37,371 bases of DNA, taken from IMG/VR virus record IMGVR_UViG_2579779116_000018, positions 1-37,371 of that record; one strand, written 5' to 3'. Shown one piece after another: positions 578 to 28,261 of this stretch (the first letter of the stretch is position 1; each line of letters starts with the position of its first letter). Source of the stretch: a virus (Duplodnaviria; Heunggongvirae; Uroviricota; Caudoviricetes). The position numbers were made by a program, and so were the translations under genes. The notes beneath the pieces are model-generated. The model did not search any database, was not told the DNA's origin, and saw only the letters and a program-made list of their open reading frames with translations.

Positions 578-1624
578 ATGAAAATTAGGTTTGCGTGTGA
601 TATTGATTGGATTAAAAACAGTAGTCGTTCAATATCACCTAGTGTATTCGAATCTCGCATAATCGCTCTGTGTAAAGAAATTAACTATGAATTTCTTGGA
701 TTCTATGGTGAGTGGAAAGGGATTAAAACAAAACTTGTTCTAAAATGTAGTGAGGGGCATGTTTATAATTCTGCCACAATCGATGGATTTATTGGTTCTG
801 GGCGTCGTTGTCCTGAGTGCAAAAAGATTAATCTGGTAAAGAAAAAAATTCGTGCAATCTCTCCCGAAGAATATACGCGACGTCTTAATGATGTATGCCT
901 AGAAGATGGTTATACATTCATTGGATTCTATGGTGAGTGGAAAGGTAACGAGACAAAAGTAATCATGCGGTGTCCTCATGGTCATGAATATAACACAGCC
1001 ACTATAAACAGCTTTCTATGTGGTATTCGTTGTCCTGAATGTAAGCGAGACAAGCTAATAGCACGAAATACAATTTCTATTGAAGAGTATAACGAAAATA
1101 TAGAAAATATGTGTTCGTCTATCGGTTATGTTTATCATGGTATTGTTGGAGAATGGAAAGGGTATAACACTAAAATATCCCTTACTTGTTCGGCTGGTCA
1201 TACATTCAAGACGGCATCTATTAGAAGTTTTCTGTATAATGGTAGCCGTTGTCCTTGTTGTGCAAGTTACGGTTATAACGTGGCTAAAGCTGGTTATCTA
1301 TATGTACAGCACGTCACGGGCGAAGTTGAAGCCATTAAATTTGGAATCACCAACCGAAAACCGGAACAGCGAATGAGACAGCACATCAACCGTTCAAAGC
1401 TGAATCATGAACTTGTGTTCTCTATGAAATTTGAAGACGGGCAAAAGGCGCTGGATGTAGAAACGAGAATTAAGCAGATCTGGAAGGGGAAGACCGGATA
1501 TGTTTCAAGAGAGTTAATGGAAGATGGTTTTACAGAAACATTACCAGCCGAAATTATGAACGTTTTTTTAAAAGATGTTAAATCGATGTGCAATCTTGCT
1601 GTAATGAATATTAGCCTCGCCTAG
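578..1624 (+). CDS. protein with three tandem Zn-ribbon-like repeats and C-terminal T5orf172 (GIY-YIG-like) domain (348 aa)
   Basis: RBS AAGAGGAA before ATG. Three copies of about 50 aa unit F-x-G-E-W-K-G...T-K...C-x-x-G-H...R-C-P-x-C; C-terminal GYLYV...KFGIT.RKPEQRMRQH matches the T5orf172 signature from memory. Paralogous to 3405-4580 and 4735-5304. Confidence 0.75.
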   Translation: MKIRFACDIDWIKNSSRSISPSVFESRIIALCKEINYEFLGFYGEWKGIKTKLVLKCSEGHVYNSATIDGFIGSGRRCPECKKINLVKKKIRAISPEEYTRRLNDVCLEDGYTFIGFYGEWKGNETKVIMRCPHGHEYNTATINSFLCGIRCPECKRDKLIARNTISIEEYNENIENMCSSIGYVYHGIVGEWKGYNTKISLTCSAGHTFKTASIRSFLYNGSRCPCCASYGYNVAKAGYLYVQHVTGEVEAIKFGITNRKPEQRMRQHINRSKLNHELVFSMKFEDGQKALDVETRIKQIWKGKTGYVSRELMEDGFTETLPAEIMNVFLKDVKSMCNLAVMNISLA

Positions 1625-1637
1625 CGCGGGGCTTTTT
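1613..1637 (+). terminator. rho-independent terminator overlapping stop codon
   Basis: AGCCTCGC-ctagc-GCGGGGCT hairpin (one G-U pair) followed by TTTTT; stop TAG of the upstream gene lies in the loop. Confidence 0.6.
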
Positions 1638-1651
1638 ACTATGGGGTTATT

Positions 1652-3331
1652 ATGAAAACTAAGTTGTATTCATATATCCGCTTCTCGTCTATGAAGCAAG
1701 CGGATGGTAGTTCTTATGAACGCCAGAAGAGAACAGCGAAAGAGATAGCCGCAAAATATGATCTTGAGCTAGTTACAAGCTATCAGGATTTTGGTGTATC
1801 TGCATTCAAAGGGGCTAACAGTAGAACAGGTGCACTATCTCGCTTTCTGGATGAGATTGGTCGATCTGTTCCGGTTGGTAGCTGGCTGGTTGTGGAAAAC
1901 TTGGACCGTATCTCTCGCCAATCCATCATTGAAGCACAAGAGCTATTTCTCTCGATCATACGTAGGGGAATAACCATTGTCACTGGTATGGATGGGAAAG
2001 TGTATAGCCGCGAATCGGTTAATGCTAATCCCATCGATTTACTATTGAGTGTCATGTTGTTTGCGAGAGCTAACGAGGAAAGCCAGACTAAGCGCAATCG
2101 TACTAACTCAAGCGCACTGATTAAGATTAAGTCGCATCAAGAAAATCCCCAGAATCCGGCAGTGGCAATCGAGGAAGTTGGGAAGAATATGTGGTGGACG
2201 GATACCACTTCCGGTTATGTGTTGCCTCATCCTACATACTTCCCTGTTGTTCAGGAGATTGTGGAATTACGGAAGAATGGACGTTCAACCGCCGAAATAC
2301 TGGATCACCTTAACGAGACATATGCACCACCACCAGCAGTAAGCAACAAGAAGCATTCAAAATGGTCACGGGCAATGGTTGAAAGGTTGTTTCATACCCG
2401 CGCTTTGATTGGTATCAAGGAGGTCTCTGTCGATGGTGTTAACTATGAGTTAAAGGATTATTACCCTCGTGTTATTGATGATGCTACGTTCTATCACCTT
2501 AAGAAAAATATTGGTGCTAGAGCATGGAACTTTGGAGACAAGGAAGAAGTTAAACCGATCCCCCTGCTTAGTGGTATTGGCCTATTGAAATGTGATCATT
2601 GCGGTTGCGCTATGGTTAAAGTGAAGGGAACGAACAAACGTTCTGACCAGTATCGTTATACATGTGATGCGACCCGTTCACGTAGACTTGATTGCGAGCA
2701 TCCAAACTGGAGTTTTCGAGGTGATCAATTAGAGAAAGCTGTATTGCAATTGCTGGCTGATAAAATCTGGATTGCTGAGGACAAGGCTAATCCGGTTCCG
2801 GCGTTGAAAGTACAGGTTGATGAAATATCACGCAAGATTGATAACCTGATTGCCCTTTCTGCTATGACAGGAGCAACGAAGGAGCTAGCCGATCAGATTA
2901 CTACCCTCAATAGCGAGCGTGAAACACTCTACAATCAGATCAAGATGGCAGAAGAGGAAATGTATTCTGTTGACTCTCAAGGCTGGGAGAAGCTCGCAGA
3001 ATTTGATTTAGAAGATGTTTACAACGAGGAACGACTAAAGGTCCGGTTTAAGATTAAGCAAGCTCTAAAGCGGATCGGGTGTAGCAGGATTGACAGAAAC
3101 AAAAACTTGTTTGTACTGGAATACATCGATGGAAAGACCCAGAGAGTTGTAATAGAAAATTCAAGAGGAACGAGGAAAGGACAAATCTTTGTCGATTTGA
3201 AAACTATCAATGATAGGCAGATTCTGGAGAGTAACGGGCTTGTTCTGCATCCATGTTTAGACATGCTGACAGATAAGAACTGGAAACCAGAAGAGGAAAT
3301 ACCAGGTCCATTACAGGAATTTGGAATTTAA
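1652..3331 (+). CDS. large serine recombinase (559 aa)
   Basis: N-terminal resolvase-type catalytic domain (YSYIRFSSMKQ with candidate nucleophilic Ser), recombinase domain, Cys-rich zinc ribbon CDHCGC...YTCDATRSRRLDCEH, and C-terminal coiled coil: the typical large serine recombinase architecture. Confidence 0.9.
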   Translation: MKTKLYSYIRFSSMKQADGSSYERQKRTAKEIAAKYDLELVTSYQDFGVSAFKGANSRTGALSRFLDEIGRSVPVGSWLVVENLDRISRQSIIEAQELFLSIIRRGITIVTGMDGKVYSRESVNANPIDLLLSVMLFARANEESQTKRNRTNSSALIKIKSHQENPQNPAVAIEEVGKNMWWTDTTSGYVLPHPTYFPVVQEIVELRKNGRSTAEILDHLNETYAPPPAVSNKKHSKWSRAMVERLFHTRALIGIKEVSVDGVNYELKDYYPRVIDDATFYHLKKNIGARAWNFGDKEEVKPIPLLSGIGLLKCDHCGCAMVKVKGTNKRSDQYRYTCDATRSRRLDCEHPNWSFRGDQLEKAVLQLLADKIWIAEDKANPVPALKVQVDEISRKIDNLIALSAMTGATKELADQITTLNSERETLYNQIKMAEEEMYSVDSQGWEKLAEFDLEDVYNEERLKVRFKIKQALKRIGCSRIDRNKNLFVLEYIDGKTQRVVIENSRGTRKGQIFVDLKTINDRQILESNGLVLHPCLDMLTDKNWKPEEEIPGPLQEFGI

Positions 3332-3367
3332 GCGGCCTAAATCGACGTATAACGAGCTAAAACAGTT

Positions 3368-3396
3368 AAGGGGTACATTCGTACCCCTTTTTAATT
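3368..3396. terminator. bidirectional intrinsic terminator between convergent genes
   Basis: Perfect hairpin AAGGGGTAC-attc-GTACCCCTT followed by TTTTTAATTT; sits between the recombinase stop (3331) and the minus-strand gene stop (3405). Confidence 0.7.
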
Positions 3397-3404
3397 TAAT
3401 TGCA

Positions 3405-4580
3405 TTAGAGAGCGTTTAAGAGAGTATTAAAGTATTCATCCATTAAATCAGGATTGTTGTCATCAATACAGAAAAATTCCGGTTTATTGATGCCGTAGAA
3501 GTGAGTATGTAGCTTGAATGTATCGTCATCAAATACATCTTTCGGAGATACCCACATATTAGCCTCGTCCGGTTGATTGGTTAGGTAGTCATAAACCAGT
3601 TGCTGTAAGTGCGGCAACTCATCAATAGTCAGAGTTTCCGACCATCCATCCTTGAAATCTTTGTAGGGTGCTGCATGAGTCTTGAAGCGTTGTTTTACTT
3701 CATGCTCTAAATCGGCAGCTTTCCAACCATCCTCAAACTCATGAGTAAAGATTAAGCGGTGAGTGAAGTTGCTCTTTCTGGTTTGTTCTCTCATTCGTTC
3801 TTCTGGTTTTCGGGTAGTGATTCCAAATTTAATAAATTTGTCATCTAATAATTGAATGTAGAAACTAGCCTTACCCTGATAAGTCCGGTTAGACAGTTGC
3901 ACCAGTTGGTCTTTAATGCAAAGCGGACAAGTGAAAGAATCAGCACATCTTAAATGAGATTCCCATTCGTGGTTATGTGACTTGCAATAGGTTTTAAATT
4001 TAACATCCTTTAGGTGTGGGGTGTTTATGGTAAATCCTTTGAAGATGTAAGGTGTAGTCTCGCAACGTGCATTGATGATTGTCTCTTTGTCCTTAATAAC
4101 TTCATCAAAAGTCTTGCCACTTCTTACCCGTTGGGATTTTTCAGCCATACAGATTTTACAATCAAAATCAAAATCATCCTTGAGAGCATGTAATAGAGAT
4201 GGCGTCATGATTTGATTGTGTATAGGACACAAAACACGGGCTTTTGTCTTGTTGCGCCCTTTCCATTCTCCTTGCCATCCTAGAAACTTCTTTCCCTTCT
4301 CATTACAACGAGATTCCATTTTCAACCATACAGCCTTTTCAGTCTGGAATAACTCACCCCCGTTAGTATCTTCCAGTTTGCGTAATTTGTAGTCCTTATA
4401 TTCTTGTGTATCTAAATTGTAGATTCGAAAGTAAGTGTGATTACCCTTCCACGGTAGGATAAATCCACCAAATACGAAAGCAGGTTCCAGTTTAGCGATG
4501 ATTCGTTGTTGGTACTCTTCCGGCGATAAACCGCGAGTTTTCTTAACAAAAGGAATTTCGGCAGCGTAAGCAAGTTTCAT
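3405..4580 (-). CDS. Zn-ribbon-repeat / T5orf172 domain protein, paralog B (391 aa)
   Basis: Start moved from ORF-track 4691 to the internal ATG at 4578-4580, which has RBS AGAGGAAACTACT upstream and gives an N-terminus (MKLAYAAEIPFVKKTRGLSPEEY) matching the paralogs. WKG/C...CP.C repeats and C-terminal FYIQL...KFGITTRKPEERMREQ. Confidence 0.75.
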   Translation of the reverse strand: MKLAYAAEIPFVKKTRGLSPEEYQQRIIAKLEPAFVFGGFILPWKGNHTYFRIYNLDTQEYKDYKLRKLEDTNGGELFQTEKAVWLKMESRCNEKGKKFLGWQGEWKGRNKTKARVLCPIHNQIMTPSLLHALKDDFDFDCKICMAEKSQRVRSGKTFDEVIKDKETIINARCETTPYIFKGFTINTPHLKDVKFKTYCKSHNHEWESHLRCADSFTCPLCIKDQLVQLSNRTYQGKASFYIQLLDDKFIKFGITTRKPEERMREQTRKSNFTHRLIFTHEFEDGWKAADLEHEVKQRFKTHAAPYKDFKDGWSETLTIDELPHLQQLVYDYLTNQPDEANMWVSPKDVFDDDTFKLHTHFYGINKPEFFCIDDNNPDLMDEYFNTLLNAL

Positions 4581-4639
4581 AGTAGTTTCCTCTAAAATAA
4601 TAAGTTCACTACTATTTATTAGAGAAAATTGTCTTACTA

Positions 4640-4667
4640 TTGCATTCTCTATCTGAATGTGTATAAT
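4640..4667 (+). promoter_or_regulatory. putative sigma70 promoter for the 4735 gene
   Basis: TTGCAT (4640-4645), 16 bp spacer, TATAAT (4662-4667), in the divergent intergenic region 4581-4734. Confidence 0.4.
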
Positions 4668-4734
4668 ACGCGACCCTAAATCCCAAACCAACCATATTGA
4701 GGTTATGCCTATAAGTTAAAAAAGTGAGGTCTAT

Positions 4735-8833: not shown

Positions 8834-11800
8834 TTAAGAAACAGTAATACCGGTAGTGGCTTTTTTAGTTACCATTACAGTTAAATCACTGATCCATGTG
8901 CTAGGCGTCCAGTTGTTGATTGCGCTTGATTGCACTTCAAAGGTCAAGGTCACAGCACCTTTACCCGCTGGCATATCAATAACACCTGAGTAAAGACCAG
9001 TATTACCGCCATACGCCCTATTATACAACTCTGACCCATTCTTACGAACAATAAGGCGACAGGTGTCGTAATAGGTATTATTGTTCGACCCTTCACGCGC
9101 TCGCAATCCACCAAAACTAATTGCCGGAATAACGATTTGACGATCGAACTTGTGATCATCTTCAACGCGAACAGTGACCGTACCCTGTGGATAACCAGCA
9201 TAACCAGTATCAACGTTAACATCACGATGCGGGAACTTACGTCCAATCACCTTAACGAAATCACCCTTAACCTGAGTAGCTTCGAGCATACCCTTAATAA
9301 CACAGCTAGAGTTAATCGTGACGTTGTTCAGAGTACCAGAATCAGCAGTGATATTACCTTTAACGGTTGCATTCATGAACGTAGCGGACCCGTTCTTGTT
9401 GATATGCCATCCGGTCGATCCGTTCCAGTTGGAAGACTGGATATAGTTACCGATTTTAGCGTTATCAATTGCACCGTTTACGATCTTCGCGTTAGTGATT
9501 GCCCCGTCCTGAATCTTCGCGCTGTTAATTGCAGCATTGCCGATTTTAGCCGTGGTAATCGCCGCATCATTAATCTGGGCTGTACCAATTGCAGCATTAC
9601 GAATCATCGCATTATCGAGATAAACCTTGTTACCTTCGATACCAAACGGGCATACTTCCGATCCGTTCTGTGGAGCTACCGCGATTTTATCAGCATTAAA
9701 GATGATTCTCGTCGGTTGCGCCGGATCGTTGGTTGCGCTCATGTGAATACCAGCCACGCGACCATCTGCATTAACTGCCAGATTGTATTTGCTGTTAATG
9801 GTTCCTTTCAAAGCATCGATTTTTACATCTGCTTCCTGATTCACACCAGCAATCTTGCCATCCATTTCTACCCGAACTTGATCAATCTTACTTGCGCTTG
9901 CTGCCTCACTGGTAGCAATAGCTTGTTTCAGGGTAGTAGCAGATGCGCTAACTTCTTTGGTGATATCGCCTTTCAGTTCAGCTTTAACCTGATCAATCTT
10001 AGTTGCACTGGCTTGATCACCAGAGACAATAAGACTCTTTAAGGTATCGGCTGAGGCTTGCACCGTCTGCCCTGTTTCGGTAGTGATTTGCTTATGCATT
10101 GCATCAATTTTAGCATCGGCATTAGCGCCAGCTTGAGCAATAGCATCCGCGATAGTTTCATCTAAGCGGTCTTGTAAACCAATCAGGTCTTCCAGTGCTT
10201 CTTTGTCCTGATCGTCCCAGCTAATGGTAGATTTCATTTGCATGAAATACGGTTCAGACCAAACAGCATCATCCATACCGAAAATATCGTAGTGAGCACC
10301 ACGGATATAATAATCACCGTCTGCCAAATCAAAGGAAGTATGGCTAACACTATTCGTGCTTACCGCCCTTGCATCGGAGAAAGTGTTATCGGTTGCATAC
10401 TGGATGATTGACCCTGCATAGTCATGTTCTACGTCATCCGCCCAGCTAACAAACGCAGTATTAAAGCCACCACGCGCACTAAAACCTTTCATTGGCTTAT
10501 GTTGTGGGTTGATAGCCACTAAACGCGCTGGGGCGCTCTCTGAGTTGTTATAGCCCTTAGCCGATACTTCTACCGTCAGTTGACGCGAAAGGCCGTTAAA
10601 CTGGTTCATATCAAGCGTATAAGTCCATGATTCAGGATCGCGGGTACGGTACTGAATAGACTTACCAGCCTTGTTAGTCACCTTGATAATGTATGCTTCA
10701 AACAGGTCACTAAACTTGTTAGTTTCACCGTTGATCTCAACATCTAAGCCTTGCTGGTTTTCCCATTCGATAATCAGATCATTACCTTCGAAAGTTCCTG
10801 GCGTGCTACCCTGATTTTTGATTCGAATAACCGGAGTCGGCAATTCATAGGTAACAGTCGGATTCTGGTTAATCAGTTCTACCCAATCGGATCGAGCGAT
10901 GATACCGAAAGCACAAACTCGGTAATCATAAGAGCGATCTTTAGCCAGTGCGTTGACACTGAAAATTTGCTGTGAAGTCTGTCCCAGCTTAATCCAGTTA
11001 GGCGATCCACTTACACGGTAATCAATCTGGAAACCGTAGCGGTTAAAATCTTCCGGTGCGTCCCATGTCAAAGTTACGTTTTTACCGTGGATTGTCTCAC
11101 CAGTTGCCTTAATTCTGAAATTAGTCGGTTTCTGTACTGTCATTGAATCCGGTAAACCGCTTGGTCGGTTGTCTGGGTTAGCCGCATAGTTCAGGTCAGT
11201 ATAAACCTGAGAATTATATTCTGTGGCAGTGATAGTCATCATCCCAGCAATACCAGAATCAATCGAGCGATCAATTGCAGTAATACGCCATAAGGAATTA
11301 TTCAGCTTCAATTCATCATAGGTTACGCTGATAACGTCCCAAACTTCGGCAGTGAATGCGTCAGTAGTCATAAAGCTGATAACCTGAGTGATACGAGATT
11401 TATTTCGTTCAATGCTCGCAAGTTTATCAATCTGGTCTTTAGACTTAACAAAACGATATTCAATATCTTTAGCGATAATTCGACCATCTTGACGAATAGT
11501 AGCATCGTTTTCAGCATCAGCCGGATAACGTAGCATTTGCTCTGAATAGTCGATTGATGGTTCTTGATACATCGCGTTAATGGTATTGAAATAACCGTTA
11601 GTGCCACCTGTTTTCAGTGATACCTTACCCATCATGATATTGTCTTCATTGAAGGTATGCTTAACAATATCAGGAGCATCCAGTTTCAGGGTAATACGTC
11701 CAAAGGATTCGAACATCACCCCGCCGAAAGTCTGCATAAGGCTAGTCAAGTTCTCTTTAAAGCTGGCGTTCGGATCACATGCACCGTTTGAATGTAGGTC

Positions 11801-12610
11801 CATCTGGCGTACTTGTTTACGTACTTTCAGGAATGAATCAACGTTAATGTTTTCAATTGGTACGGATAAGCCATATTTTTCATTTGTTAGGTAGTGGAAA
11901 ATCTGATCCACGCCGTTAGTGCTAGCCTCAATAGCATTGGTTTCAAGGTTACGGATTTTTAAGCCCATAACATCAACCGCTACTTGGCTATTAGGCTGGA
12001 GAATATCAACACCAGCAGCAAGAGATTTATCATCACGACGTAACACAATACACATGGTTGCAATACCATTGCCTTTGTAGTTGTCGTTCCAGTCTGATCC
12101 TAAATGACGTTTTGCCAGTGACAAAGCGGTGTTAGGATTCTTACCCGTGCGAAACTCAACTTCTAAAACTTTCCGGTATTCTTCTTTAATGTTGCCTTTG
12201 TCCAGTACACCATCACGGATCGTCATGTTCTTACCAACAAGAACATTTTTGTTATCGATAAACAGTGCTTTGTAATGGTCGATTTCACCCTCGGCAATAG
12301 CGAAGATTTGCACTAACTTATTGTTTTCTTGCTTGGAAATTGCTTTGTAAACGCAGATTGCACCTGTGCGGGTAGTACCGAAAAGAACGGGTAATACTGT
12401 CTTAGGATCGTTTGATGTTCCTAGTGTCACCGCATTATCTGGGCTTTGTACTTTCGGTGTTTTCGGTGCGCCTACAGTGGAAGCGATCAAGGTCATTGCA
12501 CCAGCAGCCATACCGATAGCGACTGCGGTCATAACAGAAAATGTTGCAGCAGCAGCCATCCCAGCAGACGCACCAGCAATAACCGCGCCTACCAATACTT
12601 CAAATCCCAT
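8834..12610 (-). CDS. tail tip / central fibre protein: gpI C-terminal-like N-terminus fused to gpJ-like host specificity protein (1258 aa)
   Basis: N-terminal Gly/Ala-rich hydrophobic region then PKTPKVQSPDN...LPVLFG resembles the C-terminal half of lambda gpI; central FN3-like repeats; AxI-type beta-helix repeats (NAAIGTAQINDAAITTAKIGNAAINSAKI); C-terminal about 150 aa (SGTLNNVTI..SC.IKG...DDHKFDRQIVIP...VIDMPAGKG) resemble the lambda J receptor-binding end. Start ATG overlaps upstream stop (TAATG). Confidence 0.85.
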   Translation of the reverse strand: MGFEVLVGAVIAGASAGMAAAATFSVMTAVAIGMAAGAMTLIASTVGAPKTPKVQSPDNAVTLGTSNDPKTVLPVLFGTTRTGAICVYKAISKQENNKLVQIFAIAEGEIDHYKALFIDNKNVLVGKNMTIRDGVLDKGNIKEEYRKVLEVEFRTGKNPNTALSLAKRHLGSDWNDNYKGNGIATMCIVLRRDDKSLAAGVDILQPNSQVAVDVMGLKIRNLETNAIEASTNGVDQIFHYLTNEKYGLSVPIENINVDSFLKVRKQVRQMDLHSNGACDPNASFKENLTSLMQTFGGVMFESFGRITLKLDAPDIVKHTFNEDNIMMGKVSLKTGGTNGYFNTINAMYQEPSIDYSEQMLRYPADAENDATIRQDGRIIAKDIEYRFVKSKDQIDKLASIERNKSRITQVISFMTTDAFTAEVWDVISVTYDELKLNNSLWRITAIDRSIDSGIAGMMTITATEYNSQVYTDLNYAANPDNRPSGLPDSMTVQKPTNFRIKATGETIHGKNVTLTWDAPEDFNRYGFQIDYRVSGSPNWIKLGQTSQQIFSVNALAKDRSYDYRVCAFGIIARSDWVELINQNPTVTYELPTPVIRIKNQGSTPGTFEGNDLIIEWENQQGLDVEINGETNKFSDLFEAYIIKVTNKAGKSIQYRTRDPESWTYTLDMNQFNGLSRQLTVEVSAKGYNNSESAPARLVAINPQHKPMKGFSARGGFNTAFVSWADDVEHDYAGSIIQYATDNTFSDARAVSTNSVSHTSFDLADGDYYIRGAHYDIFGMDDAVWSEPYFMQMKSTISWDDQDKEALEDLIGLQDRLDETIADAIAQAGANADAKIDAMHKQITTETGQTVQASADTLKSLIVSGDQASATKIDQVKAELKGDITKEVSASATTLKQAIATSEAASASKIDQVRVEMDGKIAGVNQEADVKIDALKGTINSKYNLAVNADGRVAGIHMSATNDPAQPTRIIFNADKIAVAPQNGSEVCPFGIEGNKVYLDNAMIRNAAIGTAQINDAAITTAKIGNAAINSAKIQDGAITNAKIVNGAIDNAKIGNYIQSSNWNGSTGWHINKNGSATFMNATVKGNITADSGTLNNVTINSSCVIKGMLEATQVKGDFVKVIGRKFPHRDVNVDTGYAGYPQGTVTVRVEDDHKFDRQIVIPAISFGGLRAREGSNNNTYYDTCRLIVRKNGSELYNRAYGGNTGLYSGVIDMPAGKGAVTLTFEVQSSAINNWTPSTWISDLTVMVTKKATTGITVS

Positions 12611-19478: not shown

Positions 19479-22400
19479 TTATTTAGTTGCTTTGAGTTCG
19501 GCTAATTCAGCTTTCGTTTCGGCAAGTTCTTTAGCCATAGCATCAAACTTAGCGCTCATTTCCTGAAACGCCTTAATTAAAAGAGCGTTGACAGCAGAGT
19601 TAGAAATTGTTAAGATCTCTTCTGGCTTATCAGGATCGCCGATCTTAGAAGTTGTTACTGCTTCCGGCAATTCTTTTTCAAGATCCTGAGCAATAATACC
19701 AACTTCATGAGCGATAACAGTGCGGTCCGTCAAAGACTTAACCTTATCGTAGGTGTACACAGTCAAGCGATTAACTTTATCGGTGGCATTCTCCTTATAC
19801 TCTTCCTTGTTGATTTTCAGACGAGCATCAGAACGAATATAAACATCGTTAAAGTTACCATTGCGTCCAGCTTGGAAATCACCGGAGGCGTTAAAGTCAA
19901 AGTTTGTGGTATGGATATGAAGACGTGCCATAGCATTAGTAATAACACCACTAGGAACGTGTACACCCATTGCCGCGATGTGGTCTAAACCCCATTTGGT
20001 CGCTTTCCATACGTTATATGCGGAAGTTTGAGCATTAGGACAATCAACCAATAAGCCAGCAGCGCGAGTTTTCCATTCTGACCATGCACCACCTTGTACT
20101 TCTCCGCGAATCAAACCACGGTCGCTACCGTTTGCATACCCACGTTCTAAGCGAATCATACCAGTCTGGAAAACATGGTCAAATTCTCCGCTGTTATAGT
20201 TTCGAATGCGCATTTGACCTGAGCCATCACCCCAGATAACACCACGGTTAGTACCATTAGCATCCTTAAACCAGAGTTCTTTATTACCATCTCTATACAT
20301 CTGAATTTGGTTATTGGTACGCAAAACATTAGTAACCACCAAATCACCATTTATCCGAGCACGACCACCCGTTTCTAAACTACCAGCAACTCTGAATTGA
20401 ATCGAACCGTTAGAATCACGCTGAGAATATAGATGATAGCTTGTTTCGTCAGCAAGTTCCCACACCTGAGCGCGAGTTTCATTACCCCAAGATTTAACAA
20501 AGAATACAGATTTCGATCCTTCGTCGTTACGTTCCCAATACAGTCTGCTTCCAAGATGTGTGGTTGCGTTCACTTCAACTCGTTTACGTTCGTTGTTGAG
20601 ACGCATTAAATGATTACCAGCATCGCTACCACCTAGTGTAACGTTACCATTGGCTAGGCTATAGATGAACGGCCTAAAGGTATTCCACGGACCCATAGTG
20701 TCGCCTGATTTTGTGCTCATCAGATAAACGTTACTACCGTCATTTCGCCACCATGAACCATAGTTACCATATACAGTACGGAAGCCATCAGCATATAAAG
20801 AAATGAATTGACCGTTAGTATAAACTCGCTTCATATTGCCAGTTTGAAGTTCTATCTGGCCGTCAATATGTTGACGAATAGAACTACCGCCTACATCACT
20901 ATACCATTCAAAAACGTTAGTATCAGCATTGGCATAACCGATCCATCCTTGACGAGTAATATCTCCAGTACGATTATCTTGAAACGCAATATGGTTGGAT
21001 TGACCAGCAGGTCGGCGTAGTGTAATGGCATTAGATCCGCCATTTAACAGCATACGACCAGAAATAATATTACCTTTATGAGTCCCAGCAATAGAGCTAC
21101 TAGATTCAACGGTTAGAATATCCTGAGCATCAGTGGCACCAGTAGCCAGACGATAGCTGGCACCTTGAACAGTCTCATGCCAGATCATTTCATTATAGTT
21201 ACTACGGAATTTACGAATATATTTCCGTCCAGTACCTCTATCATTGCTTAGATGAACAATGTCATAGCTGTTTTGTGTATTGTCGTCAAAACTCAACACA
21301 CCACGTTTATTTTCGGTGTTGAAAAGAGTTACGTTGCGACCACCGATAACACCAACGGAAGGTTTAATTAACGTGGCTTCCGGCGTATCATAAACCGTCA
21401 AACTTACATAAACAGATTTCCCATATTCGACAATAACGTTATCGGTATAACGCTGATATTTCACGTAGATATCATAGTTATCACCGGAAGTATTGACAGC
21501 AAATACCTCAAAATCTTTGTTTGTATTTCTACGGTATGCAATTACGTTAAGACCTTTAGGTCTATCGTTACCACTACGCAGAAGAATTTCTACTACGTCA
21601 ACCTGATCATATGCCGTAACGCTGTAACCATTACCACCATGAATACGGAAAAACACACTACGCCCGTTTTGTGGAATTGTTGCGGTTGCCAATTTGAAAT
21701 ATGCAGATACGTTTTCGCTAGAATTAGGAACAGACATAACGACGTTTTTAACAAACATCTTATCAACTTCTGCTTTAGTGTATGCACCAATCTCGCCAGG
21801 AGTCGGCTTATCACCTTCGTGATACATCTTATAGCTAAAGTTCTTCTGTCCTTCTCTATCAAAACCATAGGTTTCAACACGAGATCCACCAGACGCATAA
21901 CGGAAAGTAAATCCGCGACCGTGCGCTTTACCGGCAGAATGAGGAACGTTAAGGGTCAGATCCATGAGTCCATCTTGTCCATTGGTACGGAAAGCACCAA
22001 AGTAGTTAAGATCTCGCGCTGTCTGATCTTCCAGATAGTTAGCTGTCTTGCTTAACAAATACCCGCCATGCTTAGTATTGGTATTCTTCTTGATGTAAGC
22101 AGCATCGGCACTACCTTCAATAGAATCAATTCGCTGGTTAGCTGCGGCAATTGCGGCATCAGTAGAAGATTTATTCTGGTCTACCTTGTTGTTAATAGCG
22201 GTATGGTTGCTGTTAACAGTGCCAGTAAGGTTACTGATTTTAGTATCAGCATCTTTCTTGTTGTCGGAAACGACCTTTTCAATCGCTGTTTTGTTAGCTG
22301 CAACCGTGCTAGTTAAGCTAGAAATTTTGTTATCTGCATCGGTTTTATTTGCAGTAACAGTTTTAGTTAAGTTGCTAACGTTGGTGTTAGTGGTATTAAC

Positions 22401-22928
22401 TTTGTTGTTAATCGCGGTGTTATTGTCATTAACCGTCGTGGTTAAAGCTGCGATTTTATTGTCCGCATCTCGTTTATTATTTGCTACAGTAGTTTCTATA
22501 GCTGATTTGTTAGATGCAACTGTCCCTGTAAGGTTATTGATCTTAGTATCAGCATCGGTTTTATTTGCCGTGACTGTCTGGGTTAAGTTACTAACCGTGG
22601 TGTTAGTAGCATCAATGCGCTTATTGGTCGCTGTATCTTTCGTGGTAATAGTCTGATTCAGTTCAGCTTTAGCACTAGCCAGATTATTAGCGGCTTCTTG
22701 TTTGTTGGAAGCAATAACACGGTCAGTGCTAGTTTTGTTATTGTCTACTTTCGTATTCAGTTCAGCGTGTTTTTCTGGAGAAACACTAATTTGGACTACG
22801 TTATTATTTTTGTCTTTGGTGTAAATCACATGATCCGCCAACTGTAAGGCGATTTCACCCTGTGATAATTGTTCCGGCGTTGGTTTTTTACCAGCCGTTT
22901 GTGTGCGTTTAAATTGGATTGATTGCAT
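19479..22928 (-). CDS. fibre protein with C-terminal intramolecular chaperone (peptidase S74) domain (1149 aa)
   Basis: C-terminus SDARLKINKEEY...VIAHEVGIIAQDLEKELPEAV...LLIKAFQEM matches the auto-cleaving chaperone domain of T5 L-shaped fibre / endosialidase type; N-terminal third is Thr/Asn-rich tandem repeats; KPTPGEIGAYTKAEVD motif. Confidence 0.85.
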   Translation of the reverse strand: MQSIQFKRTQTAGKKPTPEQLSQGEIALQLADHVIYTKDKNNNVVQISVSPEKHAELNTKVDNNKTSTDRVIASNKQEAANNLASAKAELNQTITTKDTATNKRIDATNTTVSNLTQTVTANKTDADTKINNLTGTVASNKSAIETTVANNKRDADNKIAALTTTVNDNNTAINNKVNTTNTNVSNLTKTVTANKTDADNKISSLTSTVAANKTAIEKVVSDNKKDADTKISNLTGTVNSNHTAINNKVDQNKSSTDAAIAAANQRIDSIEGSADAAYIKKNTNTKHGGYLLSKTANYLEDQTARDLNYFGAFRTNGQDGLMDLTLNVPHSAGKAHGRGFTFRYASGGSRVETYGFDREGQKNFSYKMYHEGDKPTPGEIGAYTKAEVDKMFVKNVVMSVPNSSENVSAYFKLATATIPQNGRSVFFRIHGGNGYSVTAYDQVDVVEILLRSGNDRPKGLNVIAYRRNTNKDFEVFAVNTSGDNYDIYVKYQRYTDNVIVEYGKSVYVSLTVYDTPEATLIKPSVGVIGGRNVTLFNTENKRGVLSFDDNTQNSYDIVHLSNDRGTGRKYIRKFRSNYNEMIWHETVQGASYRLATGATDAQDILTVESSSSIAGTHKGNIISGRMLLNGGSNAITLRRPAGQSNHIAFQDNRTGDITRQGWIGYANADTNVFEWYSDVGGSSIRQHIDGQIELQTGNMKRVYTNGQFISLYADGFRTVYGNYGSWWRNDGSNVYLMSTKSGDTMGPWNTFRPFIYSLANGNVTLGGSDAGNHLMRLNNERKRVEVNATTHLGSRLYWERNDEGSKSVFFVKSWGNETRAQVWELADETSYHLYSQRDSNGSIQFRVAGSLETGGRARINGDLVVTNVLRTNNQIQMYRDGNKELWFKDANGTNRGVIWGDGSGQMRIRNYNSGEFDHVFQTGMIRLERGYANGSDRGLIRGEVQGGAWSEWKTRAAGLLVDCPNAQTSAYNVWKATKWGLDHIAAMGVHVPSGVITNAMARLHIHTTNFDFNASGDFQAGRNGNFNDVYIRSDARLKINKEEYKENATDKVNRLTVYTYDKVKSLTDRTVIAHEVGIIAQDLEKELPEAVTTSKIGDPDKPEEILTISNSAVNALLIKAFQEMSAKFDAMAKELAETKAELAELKATK
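22070..22720 (-). repeat. in-frame tandem coding repeats within the fibre gene
   Basis: Protein-level repeats of the type TVTANKTDADTKI(N/S)NLTGTV..N.TAIN(N)KV recur several times; nucleotide repeats visible. Approximate bounds. Confidence 0.6.
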
Positions 22929-23850: not shown

Positions 23851-24273
23851 TTAAAAACGCGCTAGATAAGAAAATTTAAGGCTAAGTGTCCCAACGATAC
23901 CACCATCACTAGAATCATCGTCATAATCGGTATTAGAGGCTACTGGAGTGATATCTGAAATTGAGAAGCCCAAATCTTTAAAACGTGGGTTATCCGGCTG
24001 AATCTGGATTATCTGGCAAATACCCTCATGAATTTTGGTTTCATGAATCTGAGAATATAATTGCATTTCGATAACGCATTCAGCTTGCATTGCATTACCA
24101 CCACGAACACGCGTATAAGTTTCATTCATGCCAGTGATCCAACAAACCACGTCATCACTAAAGCCTTGCTGAGTTTGTTCTACGTTTAAAGCCAGACCTA
24201 AATCTTGTTCGATAATATCTTGCAAGGCGCGTTTGATTTTCAGTCTAGGCATATTATTAACGGTAGCGAGCAT
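23851..24273 (-). CDS. head-tail connector protein candidate (about 140 aa)
   Basis: Start placed at internal ATG 24271-24273 with RBS AGGGGGT; small protein directly after the capsid gene region, typical position of head completion proteins. Confidence 0.5.
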   Translation of the reverse strand: MLATVNNMPRLKIKRALQDIIEQDLGLALNVEQTQQGFSDDVVCWITGMNETYTRVRGGNAMQAECVIEMQLYSQIHETKIHEGICQIIQIQPDNPRFKDLGFSISDITPVASNTDYDDDSSDGGIVGTLSLKFSYLARF

Positions 24274-24547
24274 GTGTACCCCCTGCCAGAGTGATAAAGC
24301 AATCAGAAGTATTATCACCATTGCGCTTAACGTATTGAACTTTGAAACGCTGATTTTCTACAATGACAATATCACCCTGCTTTAAGTCTCCCTCACGACA
24401 AAATAGAAATTCTGTCTCTGTCATTACCCCTTGTTCGTCGGTAGTAGTAATTTCATGATAAGCACGAATTGATTTACCACCTTCCACCGAAAATACAGGA
24501 GCACTCTTAAACATTCTTGATAATTGTGATTCTGATAATTTGAACAT
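24257..24547 (-). CDS. head-tail connector protein candidate (96 aa)
   Basis: RBS AAGGGGGTAACT; first gene after the capsid terminator; typical position of a head-tail adaptor. Confidence 0.5.
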   Translation of the reverse strand: MFKLSESQLSRMFKSAPVFSVEGGKSIRAYHEITTTDEQGVMTETEFLFCREGDLKQGDIVIVENQRFKVQYVKRNGDNTSDCFITLAGGTHARYR

Positions 24548-24577: not shown

Positions 24578-24604
24578 AAAAAAGCCCCACCATTAAGGCA
24601 GGGC
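24578..24604 (-). terminator. intrinsic terminator (copy 2 of an identical pair)
   Basis: Identical 27 nt to 18803-18829: GCCCUGCC-uuaa-GGUGGGGC then UUUUUU, immediately downstream of the capsid gene. Confidence 0.7.
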
Positions 24605-24697
24605 TAATTATTATTTTGCTTTCGGTGGACGTCCCACCTTTTTAGCTGTGGCTTTCGCCGTAACTACCGGAATTTCTTCCGGCAATTCTTCGTTATT

Positions 24698-26704
24698 TCA
24701 CTCTTCGCCCATTTTCAGAACTTTCAGAGCTTCCGGCTGAACTACGGTGAAGTCCAGGTCTACCCAGATACGCGGAACGATAGCAGACTGTGCGCGGTAA
24801 GTGGTGTCATCCATATCCAGTTCCAGACCACCCCATTCACCGATCATGATACCGGAGAAGTCACCCAGAACGATGTGGTCTGCCGGAATAACGCCAGAAG
24901 TAACTACATCGTAACCAGCCAGTTTGCCGTTTTCGATGATATAACCGGAAACGCCGTTATCTTTCAGGGTAGATTCCAGTTCAGCAGCAGTTGCACCGCT
25001 CATTGCAAACTTGATGGACTGTGCCGGAACGCCAGCGTCGGTCAGTGCTGCAATTTCTTTCAGGAAGTCTTTGTAAGAGAAGGCAGTTTTCTTAGTAACG
25101 CGACCACCGTCTACCAGTTGCTTAACCAGACCAGCCGGACCACGAGTATTATCTTTGTCAGACAGAATCAGTTGTTCCAGTTTGATCCGAACAGCTTTGT
25201 TAATGTGATCAGTGATCAGGGTAGCGATGCCGGGAACTTGCTTGATGCTCGCTCTGCTAATCGGGTTGCCTCCAGCAAACGTCTTAGGAGACATTTTCAC
25301 GTTCGAAAAGGTAGCCTTCGACTCGGGGGCACTTCCATTTTCATCAACAAAACCAAAGGCTTCGACGCTGGAAGCAGTCATTTTTGGTACTGCAATCGGG
25401 CTATTCAGACCAGACAGAACAGTCACACCCAGACGACCCAGACACGAAGCAGGAAGCAGCATTTCGATGTAGGATTCAGTCAGCAGTTTTTCATCGGTGA
25501 TAGCAGTCAGGTCAGCTTTGGTGTTGCCAGCAGCAGCAGCACGCATAGCAGCAGCCGGAACGAATACAGAGCCACCACGAGCAGCACGACCACGCTGCAT
25601 TGCAGCACCAGCAGCCATAGCGGAATATTCAGCTTCGTTAGCACCCAGAGCAGCACCATCTACCAGAGAGCGAATTACGTTGTTCAGGTCAAAAGTTTTT
25701 TCCATGTTTTTTTCCTTATTAATTTGTTCGTTATTACGTTGAGCATTGGTAATGTTATTTAGTGCCTTAGTGCGGAATGCTTCCGGCGTCATGTCTTTAA
25801 TTGCCAATGCGCGTTTCAATTCTTCGTCGTCAATATTTAGTTCGCGTGCAATTTCGCGAATTTCTAATTCGTCTTCTTCGGAACGTTCAGCCACTTCTTC
25901 GATTTTTTCTTCTTCAATCGGAGCGGCTTCACGTTCTTCTTTTACTTCTTCTTCTTCCCGAACAGTTGAACTATCATCATCAACACTTTCAGGATGTTCA
26001 GCGTCTTTTCCGTCTTCGAGATTTTCATCTTCTTTATTCTCTTCAACTTGGCGCTCTTGAGTTTCTTCAACTTCCGATTCTTTATTTTCTTCTACCGGAG
26101 TTTCTTCAACCTGAGCGGATTCTTGTTCTTCTTTGATTTCTTCGATTTGTTCTTTAGTCATATCGCGTTTAGCCCCCAAATTAACTGTGATAGTATTTAG
26201 AGAGCGATTTAAACCGACCGAATCATCGGCAGGGACCGTCACAAATGAAATTTCAAAAGGCGCCCACTTAGTAACAATCAATTGCCCTTTGGTGTAGTCG
26301 ATGTGATATTCTTTAATGTCATAACCGACAGAAATTTTTTCCATCGTACCTTCAATGACTTTATTGCGAATATCATTAGCCAAAGTGCCATGCTTAGAGA
26401 ATTTAACCAGAGCACGACCTACGTTATCCGTATCGATTCGAGCGTCGCAGACTACACCAATGTGATTATCGAAATTATGATTGAACAGCAACGGAGCGTT
26501 ATTATTCAGACGAGACAGATCAACCGCTTCCGGTGTATGTACCAGAATTTCATCTAATACCACCATTTCTTGATTTTGCTCATCCCAGAATTGGCGCTGG
26601 TAAGGCTGGGTACTGGAGAAAGCAATTTCAAATTCGTATTGATCGTTATGCCCTTCATTAATAACTCCACCGTAACCGTTAAGATCGCGGCGAAATTTAA
26701 GCAT
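24698..26704 (-). CDS. prohead protease (S78-like) - scaffold-like linker - HK97-fold major capsid protein fusion (668 aa)
   Basis: N-terminal domain with PLLFNHNFDNHIGVV, KISVGYDIKEYHID and FEISFVTVPADD (caudoviral prohead protease signature); Glu-rich about 120 aa linker; C-terminal about 350 aa typical of HK97-type capsid proteins; single uninterrupted ORF. Confidence 0.85.
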   Translation of the reverse strand: MLKFRRDLNGYGGVINEGHNDQYEFEIAFSSTQPYQRQFWDEQNQEMVVLDEILVHTPEAVDLSRLNNNAPLLFNHNFDNHIGVVCDARIDTDNVGRALVKFSKHGTLANDIRNKVIEGTMEKISVGYDIKEYHIDYTKGQLIVTKWAPFEISFVTVPADDSVGLNRSLNTITVNLGAKRDMTKEQIEEIKEEQESAQVEETPVEENKESEVEETQERQVEENKEDENLEDGKDAEHPESVDDDSSTVREEEEVKEEREAAPIEEEKIEEVAERSEEDELEIREIARELNIDDEELKRALAIKDMTPEAFRTKALNNITNAQRNNEQINKEKNMEKTFDLNNVIRSLVDGAALGANEAEYSAMAAGAAMQRGRAARGGSVFVPAAAMRAAAAGNTKADLTAITDEKLLTESYIEMLLPASCLGRLGVTVLSGLNSPIAVPKMTASSVEAFGFVDENGSAPESKATFSNVKMSPKTFAGGNPISRASIKQVPGIATLITDHINKAVRIKLEQLILSDKDNTRGPAGLVKQLVDGGRVTKKTAFSYKDFLKEIAALTDAGVPAQSIKFAMSGATAAELESTLKDNGVSGYIIENGKLAGYDVVTSGVIPADHIVLGDFSGIMIGEWGGLELDMDDTTYRAQSAIVPRIWVDLDFTVVQPEALKVLKMGEE

Positions 26705-26723
26705 TTAATCACCTTTAATTAAT

Positions 26724-26740
26724 TGGGGGCATTGCGCCCC
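26724..26740 (-). other. GC hairpin GGGGGC-attgc-GCCCCC between portal and capsid genes
   Basis: Perfect 6 bp G/C stem in the 45 nt intergenic spacer; no clear U-tract. Confidence 0.35.
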
Positions 26741-26749
26741 CGTTGGTTA

Positions 26750-28261
26750 TTAGGGATCGGCTGGGGAATTTTTTTCTTCACCCTCGCCATTAACGATAAT
26801 ATTTAGTGCGCTCTTTTCGGCTTGAATCTCTGAGAATACTTTTTCAGGATCATCACCACGTTCAAGAATAACGGCAGTACGTGATTTAAGTCCGTTATCA
26901 ATTAAAGCAATCTCGGCGCTTACGTCTTTAAATGGATCGACGGATTCAAAACGCGGACGGATAATAGTTGTATTATCGATAATATGCGGAATTGCAGTAA
27001 TACGAATCGGAACAATACCACGCGCGGAATAATGTCGAAGATAACTTTCGAAAATAGGCAATACAACCGTCTCAATTAATTTGTTTTGCAGTGCTTTAAC
27101 TCGTGTGCGCTGGGTTAGTTCCCCAAAACGCGCGGCTGAGTAGTTGATCTGTGAACAATCTCCTGTTAAGCCCTGTTTGAACACGCCTAAGCCCATTGAT
27201 ACGCTAGTAAACATCGCATCATTGAAGCTGTTAAAGTCATCACCGCTTTGCGTCGCCTGGATGCTCTTGATCGTTGCCCCTTCCGGTAATTCCTGAATAG
27301 TACCCGGTGCAAAATCCTGTACTACTTCCGGCGCTTGATATTGTTCATCATCTTCACCAGTATCAAAATCGTCACCAGAATCTTTCGGACGTTCGATAAA
27401 GCCCATAGAGCTAGCTGCAATACGTTTCTGGATGATCGCGGTTTCGCGGAATGCGTCTTGATGTGCGATATCCTTGATCACTGGCAGGAAGTCAGTCACA
27501 CCACGCAGGGATTCGGCTGTAAGTGGTTGATAATAATGGCATACTTGCGATGCATCTACGCGATAGTTATCACCTGTGTAAGTCTGAGTCAGTAGGTTGA
27601 TTTTACGAAACCAGTATGCAACAGGGCGCATTGTTTCTACGTCATACTCGATCCCCTGAAATATCGCACGGTCTTTGCTTACTTCACGATTGAGCGACCA
27701 GTCGCACTTATCAGCAGACAGGATAGAAACATTTAACTCATTGTTTTCTTTGGTTAAAACGATGAAGCACTCACCACCCATAACGCGCTCACGTTCAGCC
27801 ATTACCAGCAGTTCACGGAAGTTAAAGCGACCGTTACGAGAGAAGCGTTTAGCGTTCTGCGCCCACTTCCAGAAAGCATTCTCGATCTGCTTATTCAGTG
27901 CGCTATCAAGTTTGCCATTTGATTTAACGATTGACGGCTTAGGATCTAGGCCAGTAGCAACCACCATATCGGTGATGTATTGCGTGTAGCGACTGCCAAC
28001 GGAAGTGTTTAAGGCCAGAGTACGACCCTGATCATAAAGGCGCTTACCGTTCGATTTGAGAGCCTTATTGAAGGTTCCTGTAATGGTGTCTTGTTGAAGC
28101 TGCCCATCAATGCGATCACCGACTAAGCCCAAAGAACGCTTAGACAAATCTTTCTGGAATTTTTCTACTTGTTTGTCGATAAAGATTTTTTGTTGTTGCT
28201 GGCGGTGATTAGTTTTAACTGGAGTTTCTACCGCCTTTTTGCGTCGAAAAAGATTAAACAT
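26750..28261 (-). CDS. portal protein (503 aa)
   Basis: Size and position between large terminase and capsid genes; RBS AAGGGGTAAATC; acidic C-terminal tail. Confidence 0.85.
   Translation of the reverse strand: MFNLFRRKKAVETPVKTNHRQQQQKIFIDKQVEKFQKDLSKRSLGLVGDRIDGQLQQDTITGTFNKALKSNGKRLYDQGRTLALNTSVGSRYTQYITDMVVATGLDPKPSIVKSNGKLDSALNKQIENAFWKWAQNAKRFSRNGRFNFRELLVMAERERVMGGECFIVLTKENNELNVSILSADKCDWSLNREVSKDRAIFQGIEYDVETMRPVAYWFRKINLLTQTYTGDNYRVDASQVCHYYQPLTAESLRGVTDFLPVIKDIAHQDAFRETAIIQKRIAASSMGFIERPKDSGDDFDTGEDDEQYQAPEVVQDFAPGTIQELPEGATIKSIQATQSGDDFNSFNDAMFTSVSMGLGVFKQGLTGDCSQINYSAARFGELTQRTRVKALQNKLIETVVLPIFESYLRHYSARGIVPIRITAIPHIIDNTTIIRPRFESVDPFKDVSAEIALIDNGLKSRTAVILERGDDPEKVFSEIQAEKSALNIIVNGEGEEKNSPADP

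Follow-up and report, generated by a model that had tools for sequence, protein, structure and literature searches.

The gene discussed here lies on the minus strand of a 37,371-nucleotide stretch of viral DNA (positions 1 to 37,371 of IMG/VR record IMGVR_UViG_2579779116_000018; hereafter the window). It is an ordinary member of a widespread tailed-phage family, in which an S78 protease, a scaffold region and an HK97-fold capsid protein are encoded in one frame. The only point with some novelty is a conserved signal for an internal start. Just past the protease domain, an in-frame ATG (Met182) follows a Shine-Dalgarno (SD)-like motif, and this combination recurs in the family well above controls. 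A protease-free scaffold-capsid product is therefore likely to be made as well, and the "fixed 1:1 stoichiometry" of protease and capsid, which a first-pass annotation of the window had deduced from the uninterrupted frame, is doubtful and probably wrong. The gene is quite probably best explained as an ordinary fusion with a covalent scaffold and self-cleavage, which probably gives rise to two products, the full-length chain and the one starting at Met182.

The pairing of the internal SD with the anti-SD sequence (-8.4 kcal/mol) ranks in the top 1.2% of the gene's codon positions; the value for the annotated start is -4.3 kcal/mol. All fused proteins examined have a Met 14-34 residues beyond the point where the conserved protease domain ends. 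At offset 8-30 a Met is found in 102 of 149 fused representatives, as compared to 63.9 +/- 5.5 (maximum 81) in 2,000 shuffles within the linker. At seven of eight loci (the window, DCP80, VP882, phiHAP-1, RcCronus, ep3 and R4C) the SD pairing at the post-protease Met is at least as strong as at the annotated start, and only the cyanophage S-CBS1 lacks an SD at the homologous Met. The SD scores of other Mets in this region are close to the median.

The signal was further analysed in 80 independent IMG/VR loci of 24-40% protein identity, 78 of which were usable. An ATG lies within 45 codons of the protease end in 70 of the 78. Of these 70 loci, 32 fall into the top 10% of SD strength, as compared to 7.3% of 970 other in-frame ATGs (Mann-Whitney p 1.9e-7). 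Even if only the local linker codons are taken as background, 21 of the 70 remain in the top 10% (binomial p 2.9e-6). An SD core 4-12 nt upstream is seen at 44% of the 70 post-protease ATGs and at 7% of 1,149 control ATGs; its spacing peaks at 7-8 nt at the former and is flat in the controls. Codon usage points in the same direction for Glu: just upstream of the Met, GAG makes up 54% of the Glu codons, as compared to 36% in the rest of the linker (p 0.007). The Lys codons there are unbiased. Residue 176 was checked in 157 close enterobacterial variants: 152 have Gly (GGG) or Glu (GAG) and nothing else, and in the other five the anchoring motif was not found.

What was observed is the presence of SD and ATG and their enrichment; that the start is used, we infer. 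The proposal is that two products are made, a 73.5-kDa chain from the annotated ATG and a 52.9-kDa chain from Met182, and that the latter keeps the ratio of protease to capsid under 1:1, in the manner of lambda C/Nu3, HSV-1 (herpes simplex virus 1) UL26/UL26.5 and HFTV1 gp17/gp17.5. Fusion genes in general would then be nested genes: the Met182-type start would supply the main building block, free of protease, and the full-length chain would be a minority species with a covalently tethered protease. On the sequence evidence, we lean somewhat towards this view. If true, the internal start explains how fused genes avoid one protease per subunit. A literature search of limited reach yielded no report of nested expression for protease-capsid fusions.

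The reading of the gene as a single open reading frame (ORF) for protease, linker and capsid is confirmed. The ORF, for which the first-pass annotation had given no strand, runs on the minus strand from an ATG to a TGA over 668 residues without internal stop or frame break. In Pfam-A, residues 40-162 match Peptidase_S78 (PF04586; E 9e-11) with 42.6 bits at a cutoff of 21, and residues 413-665 match Phage_capsid (PF05065; E 8e-26) with 91.5 bits at a cutoff of 24.2. The profile search thus bears out the S78 assignment, as do the aligned catalytic His and Ser: the motifs FFNH and GMSVGF of HK97 gp4 read LFNH and KISVGY in the window. These two residues and Glu151 are invariant in the 50%-identity cluster representatives of the fusion family (151 sequences) and also in seven fused proteins from cultured phages. 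An AlphaFold2 model, built from 108 sequences, has a mean predicted local distance difference test score (pLDDT) of 83.4 and clear domain limits. It shows residues 21-169 as a beta-rich domain (pLDDT >90) with an assemblin-like fold, i.e., that of herpesvirus protease and T4 gp21. The C-terminal domain resembles known capsid proteins in a Foldseek search (R4C 8GTA, TM score 0.72; HK97, 0.67-0.75), and hhalign pairs residues 395-663 with residues 108-379 of HK97 gp5 at 95.7% probability.

The region in between had been described as a "Glu-rich scaffold-like linker". It is acidic indeed, yet it is made up of two parts, a disordered acidic stretch followed by a conserved helical domain. Residues 170-182 and 198-270 have pLDDT values below 50, with a short predicted helix at 184-195. 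Measured from Arg167 to Ile282, the linker comprises 114 residues with a net charge of -34 (family medians 59 and -5), which ranks it 7th of 149; several other clusters have similarly long acidic linkers. The helical domain is modelled with helices at 276-288, 293-301, 307-337, 340-349, 355-370 and 384-391 (pLDDT 82-97), and a near-invariant Arg388 is located close to its end. By its position, its helicity and analogy, the domain would be a built-in scaffold.

Information on maturation comes from phage R4C. Its fusion protein (gp006, locus L008) has 629 residues, and the capsid chain in the virion structure 8GTA, 268 residues long, is exactly residues 362-629. By analogy, a shell without its N-terminal 361 residues supports removal of the N-terminal part. 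The R4C structure paper reports 415 capsid-protein copies per capsid and mentions neither protease nor cleavage. The loss of 361 residues goes unremarked there; the link between 8GTA and the fused gene was made by sequence comparison. The first residue of the R4C chain maps to residues 399-404 of the window protein. The known mature N-terminus of HK97 gp5, Ser104, maps via hhalign to about residue 391, just past Arg388. In the AlphaFold2 model a low-confidence hinge at residues 395-404 is the only such gap between the helical and the capsid domain, and it coincides with the R4C boundary. Because these three lines converge, the maturation cleavage is placed within residues 389-404, which predicts a mature shell protein of about 265-280 residues. 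Self-processing, as the first-pass annotation had suggested, is a sound reading, with protease activity and cleavage position predicted from sequence.

The sequence of events may be pictured as follows. The C-terminal capsid domains would form the procapsid shell, with the N-terminal parts facing inward. The helical domain (residues 275-391) would serve as the scaffold, like the delta domain of HK97 or T5. The protease, with His76 and Ser125 in its active site, would cut within about residues 389-404 and probably elsewhere too. The N-terminal 390-400 residues or so would be degraded and exit, and a shell protein of about 28-30 kDa would stay behind. Annotators and structural biologists should expect a mature protein of this size, not one of 73 kDa.

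A rarity of the fused arrangement, as implied by the first-pass annotation, is not borne out. The protein matches PHROG 617 ("major head protein", 626 positions) end to end (residues 23-664 versus positions 26-622, E 3.7e-94), and PHROG 4523 is annotated as "major head and protease protein". When 1.84 billion cluster representatives (50% identity) were searched exhaustively, 490 matched at E<=1e-30 and 6,995 at the looser limit of E<=1e-3. Among the top 150, 144 have a length of 550-720 residues and match in both halves. A further profile search against the large protein collection contributed little new diversity, most of its matches being to the enterobacterial cluster already seen. The same fusion in the same gene order occurs in the cultured phages VP882, phiHAP-1, RcCronus, ep3, S-CBS1 and R4C; ECO1230-10, Bas97, PPpW-3, Mica and the Xanthomonas FoX phages, compared for gene presence only, also have the fused gene. 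Deposited labels include "major capsid and protease fusion protein", "putative major capsid protein and peptidase U35" and "major capsid protein and protease". The architecture has been described for thaumarchaeal proviruses (PMC6563490), for Francisella phage KIRK (PMC7924643) and in PMC13611946. In view of these published descriptions and of a large named family, the protease-scaffold-capsid arrangement is already known and common. Databases mostly label such fusions simply "major capsid protein", which hides the protease and inflates the apparent size of the capsid protein.

Within the family, VP882 gp07, phiHAP-1 ORF5, ep3_0031, RcCronus gp7, R4C gp006, Miki gp39 and KIRK Fhv_0017 have the same domain order as the window protein. 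The neighbours are shared too: a gpA-type large terminase subunit, a gpW-like protein and a lambda-family portal directly upstream, and so is the invariant His/Ser/Glu set. The window differs from the cultured-phage fusions in sequence, being only 23-44% identical, and in its acidic linker, which is about twice as long as the family median. For the Miki homologue, its authors describe a T5-like similarity. Among deposited "phages", the closest relative is Escherichia phage DCP80 (locus L002, PQ671644.1; 43.6% identity). Its record of 141 kb is classed as Straboviridae (T4-like), yet it carries a lambda-type terminase-portal-fusion module near the left end, with all genes called "hypothetical". 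A chimeric assembly or a wrong classification may account for this.

HK97 is the obvious system for comparison. Its gp4 and gp5 share with the window protein the protease family with aligned catalytic His and Ser, and the capsid fold. In HK97 gp5 the scaffold is built into the N-terminus of the capsid protein and removed by the protease; by analogy, the same layout is proposed here. The difference is that HK97 has a separate protease gene, whereas the protease is covalently joined in the window. The HK97 protease reaches the procapsid non-covalently through its C-terminal tail. This tail is absent from the window fusion, and the helical domain does not align with the HK97 delta domain. A stem-loop or terminator lies on either side of the protease-capsid unit, here as in HK97.

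Nested starts are well established elsewhere. The protease of lambda, C, belongs to a family different from S78. In lambda C/Nu3 and HSV-1 UL26/UL26.5, in-frame nested starts provide abundant protease-free scaffold; for gp17/gp17.5 of the archaeal virus HFTV1 the nested start was shown by ribosome profiling, and the layout of OsHV-1 is similar (10.64898/2026.09.13.751334; PMC11565193). In these four systems the start is situated just past the protease domain and the protease-bearing form is the rarer one; the window shares the sequence signal only. A further difference is that their common C-terminal part is scaffold alone, with the capsid protein encoded by a separate gene, whereas in the window it would be scaffold plus capsid. 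Were the internal start in use, a third gene layout, one that includes the capsid protein, would turn out to set its protease:scaffold ratio by nesting, as is known for lambda, the herpesviruses and an archaeal virus. Of the lambda head module, the window matches the gpA terminase, a gpW-like protein and a lambda-family portal; C/Nu3, the decoration protein gpD and gpE do not occur as separate genes, and the S78-capsid fusion stands in their position. P2 gpO and the prohead protease of T1-like Drexlerviridae combine an N-terminal protease with a helical scaffold in one self-processing chain, but have the capsid protein in a separate gene; the T1-like case is treated in a CBASS preprint.

The frame is intact and selected. 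Proteins 95-100% identical to the fusion are found in many assemblies of E. coli, Salmonella and Shigella. The region is carried by 55 of 5,426 complete E. coli genomes, and 48 of the 55 match 80% or more of the query, at 93-98% nucleotide identity and with an ORF annotated as intact. Despite this distribution and identical capsid proteins in Salmonella and Shigella assemblies, the GC content is about 41% across the whole window; that of the E. coli chromosome is typically about 51%. Megablast of the head region against deposited phages gave no match; only protein-level searches were informative. The 121 close protein variants are 665-670 residues long, and all indels are whole codons, mostly in the linker and the scaffold-like region. 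Comparison with two copies of about 93% identity puts the ratio of nonsynonymous to synonymous substitution rates (dN/dS) at 0.12-0.13 in the protease, 0.26-0.29 in the capsid and 0.46-0.50 in the helical middle domain; in the acidic linker it is about 0.8-1.7, from few substitutions. By this measure (about 0.12, the lowest in the gene) the protease is under strong purifying selection. Whole-codon indels and dN/dS together imply that the entire frame is translated and selected; only the exact sequence of the linker is free to vary.

These data also bear on the suspicion that the fusion is an assembly or sequencing error, with an indel or an overlooked stop codon merging separate protease and capsid genes. 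Nothing was found in its support. The 48 E. coli genomes with the intact ORF were sequenced independently, the indels of the variants are whole codons, 144 of the 150 best cluster representatives have the fused length, and the fusion recurs in cultured phages. The sole split copy results from an IS1 insertion (PGAP calls its N-terminal fragment "HK97 family phage prohead protease"). Another candidate for a split gene, locus L022, was rejected, since it is a divergent or truncated match inside an open frame. As to programmed frameshifting, the frame is continuous and homology is found in no second frame. An artefact is thereby effectively refuted, and the resequencing that had been advised to look for a stop or frameshift between the domains is no longer needed. 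Alternatively, the N-terminal domain might be a degenerate, inactive protease that merely adds scaffold or cargo, with maturation left to a host protease or not taking place. Protease activity in this lineage is indeed deduced from sequence. A relic is nevertheless very improbable in view of the invariant His76, Ser125 and Glu151, the low dN/dS, the R4C shell devoid of its N-terminal part, and a head module that contains no other protease gene.

A more serious competitor is a single product: only the 668-residue chain would be made, every subunit would carry a protease, and the signal at Met182 would be a relic of the fusion, an effect of composition or a pause site. We consider this possible, though not the likelier outcome. 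An uninterrupted ORF with an SD of its own is in line with it, and P2 gpO is cited as a full-length protease-scaffold chain that processes itself. Several observations weigh against two products, or against parts of the scheme built on them. In the window the internal SD is spaced at 11 nt, beyond the optimum of 7-8 nt, and a predicted local RNA fold may pair part of it. At the equivalent Met, an SD is missing from about one third of the independent loci, and 8 of 78 do not even have the ATG; the feature is not universal in the family, and these phages presumably assemble all the same. That the loci without internal SD belong to hosts using SDs weakly was considered and dropped, the link between a weak main-start SD and a weak internal one being marginal (Fisher p 0.066). 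The purine-rich linker raises the background of SD-like motifs, yet the p value with the local control is still about 3e-6. In sequence, the helical domain does not resemble the delta domain of HK97 (hhalign aligns gp5 108-379 only and nothing in 1-103). The 268 residues of the R4C chain may be what could be modelled rather than a mapped N-terminus. Of course, that the protease is active, where it cuts and that translation starts internally are predictions. On the other hand, the enrichment of SD plus ATG over other in-frame ATGs is about 6-fold, with canonical spacing, in lineages only 24-40% identical, where neutral motifs should have decayed. The signal stands out against local linker codons too, the synonymous preference for GAG is seen just upstream, and substitutions in the SD are limited to GGG and GAG. 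A full-length-only procapsid would also be crowded: by a rough estimate, 415 subunits with 44.9 kDa of cargo each would fill a T=7 procapsid with about 18.6 MDa, where scaffold loads are typically several times smaller; the Met182 product would bring in about 10.1 MDa.

A further internal start might also be used at Met334, besides or instead of Met182, to yield a 35-kDa capsid precursor with a truncated scaffold. Its SD pairing (-6.2 kcal/mol) is in the top 2.7% of codon positions and its spacing is canonical. Met334 is kept in 121 of 121 close variants, AAGGA and ATG persist in diverged copies despite a local indel, and DCP80 has an SD and ATG 13 residues upstream of the equivalent position. 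In more distant relatives, however, the position is Leu, Val, Ile or Ala, and other in-frame ATGs as a group are not enriched in SDs. Met334 also lies inside the long predicted helix 307-337, and the product would lose most of the helical domain. We regard this start as unlikely. The coordinates of all features are compiled in Table 1.

Table 1. Features of the protease-capsid fusion gene and its immediate surroundings in the window (aa, amino acids; pI, isoelectric point)
Feature	Positions	Strand	Basis or remark
Whole fusion ORF, 668 aa, 73.5 kDa, pI 4.6: protease, acidic linker, helical scaffold-like domain, HK97-fold capsid	24698..26704	-	ORF list, Pfam-A, PHROG
GC-rich stem-loop GGGGGC-GCAAT-GCCCCC, 5-nt loop, between portal stop and capsid-gene SD	26724..26742	-	
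SD-like AAGGTGA, ending 4 nt before the annotated ATG	26709..26715	-	predicted anti-SD pairing -4.3 kcal/mol
Annotated ATG of the fusion ORF	26702-26704	-	
S78 (HK97-type) prohead serine protease domain, aa 21-169, assemblin / T4 gp21 fold	26198..26644	-	Pfam, model
His76 codon, aligned with catalytic His65 of HK97 gp4; invariant 151/151	26477..26479	-	alignment
Ser125 codon, aligned with catalytic Ser114 of HK97 gp4; invariant 151/151	26330..26332	-	alignment
Glu151 codon (EIS motif), invariant 151/151; candidate third active-site residue	26252..26254	-	alignment
Acidic linker, aa 171-274, 40% Asp+Glu, net charge -29	25883..26194	-	composition, model
Internal SD-like GGGGG (GGAGG in copy L010), 11 nt upstream of the Met182 ATG	26173..26177	-	predicted pairing -8.4 kcal/mol
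In-frame ATG of Met182, candidate internal start of a 487-aa, 52.9-kDa protease-free linker-scaffold-capsid chain	26159..26161	-	
Conserved helical scaffold-like domain, aa 275-391	25532..25882	-	model, family conservation
SD-like TAAGGA (25713-25718), 7 nt, then in-frame ATG of Met334 (25703-25705); weaker candidate start of a 335-aa, 35.1-kDa product	25703..25718	-	
Predicted maturation-cleavage zone, aa 389-404	25493..25540	-	R4C and HK97 mapping, hinge
HK97-fold major capsid domain, aa 405-668	24701..25492	-	Pfam, model, fold search
TGA stop codon of the fusion ORF	24698-24700	-	
Intrinsic terminator, 9-bp GC-rich stem then TTTTTT, about 95 nt past the capsid stop	24583..24605	-	

The window as a whole is a siphovirus-type E. 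coli prophage with a serine integrase, a tape measure and tail fibres. Its head module begins with a gpA-type large terminase (PF05876 and PF20454), followed by the gpW-like protein (phrog_5774), the portal (26750..28261; PF05136, lambda-family, E 1.8e-62) directly upstream of the fusion gene, and the fusion itself. The next ORFs downstream encode head-tail proteins, and the tail genes come after these. No separate protease, scaffold or decoration gene was found in the head module by ORF list, Pfam-A or PHROG.

The stem-loop between portal and fusion gene has no U-tract on the sense strand and is identical in E. coli copies that are about 93% identical; DCP80 has an unrelated stem-loop at the equivalent position. 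It may serve to stabilise or process the mRNA and so raise expression of the capsid gene relative to the portal gene. The terminator downstream of the gene has a conserved stem and a variable loop among other E. coli copies, and DCP80 has a different terminator there. The roughly 95 nt from the TGA to this terminator (24606-24700, minus strand) are 100% identical in three copies that differ at 18-30% of synonymous sites in their capsid ORFs. In this segment the capsid frame stays open for 28 codons beyond the TGA (NNEELPEEIPVVTAKATAKKVGRPPKAK). It also holds a possible TTG-started ORF of 25 codons, and DCP80 has an ATG-started ORF of 21 codons there. The segment may be a readthrough extension or a small gene.

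A few other features of the window deserve mention. ARAGORN calls a tRNA-Gln(ttg) of 91 nt at 23996-24086 on the plus strand, within the minus-strand head-tail ORF 23851-24321; its odd length and location suggest a false positive. A 1,149-residue homologue of the distal subunit of T4-type long tail fibres is encoded at 19479-22928 (minus strand) between the genes of the major tail protein and the tape measure, which is an unusual position for a siphovirus-type tail module. Its N-terminal part is a series of NK(T/S)DAD.KI-like repeats. Further downstream (8834-12610, minus strand) lies the gene of a second fibre protein, which has 1,258 residues. At 578-4691, finally, a large serine recombinase gene (1652-3331) is flanked by two genes of one endonuclease family (phrog_681), one on each strand.

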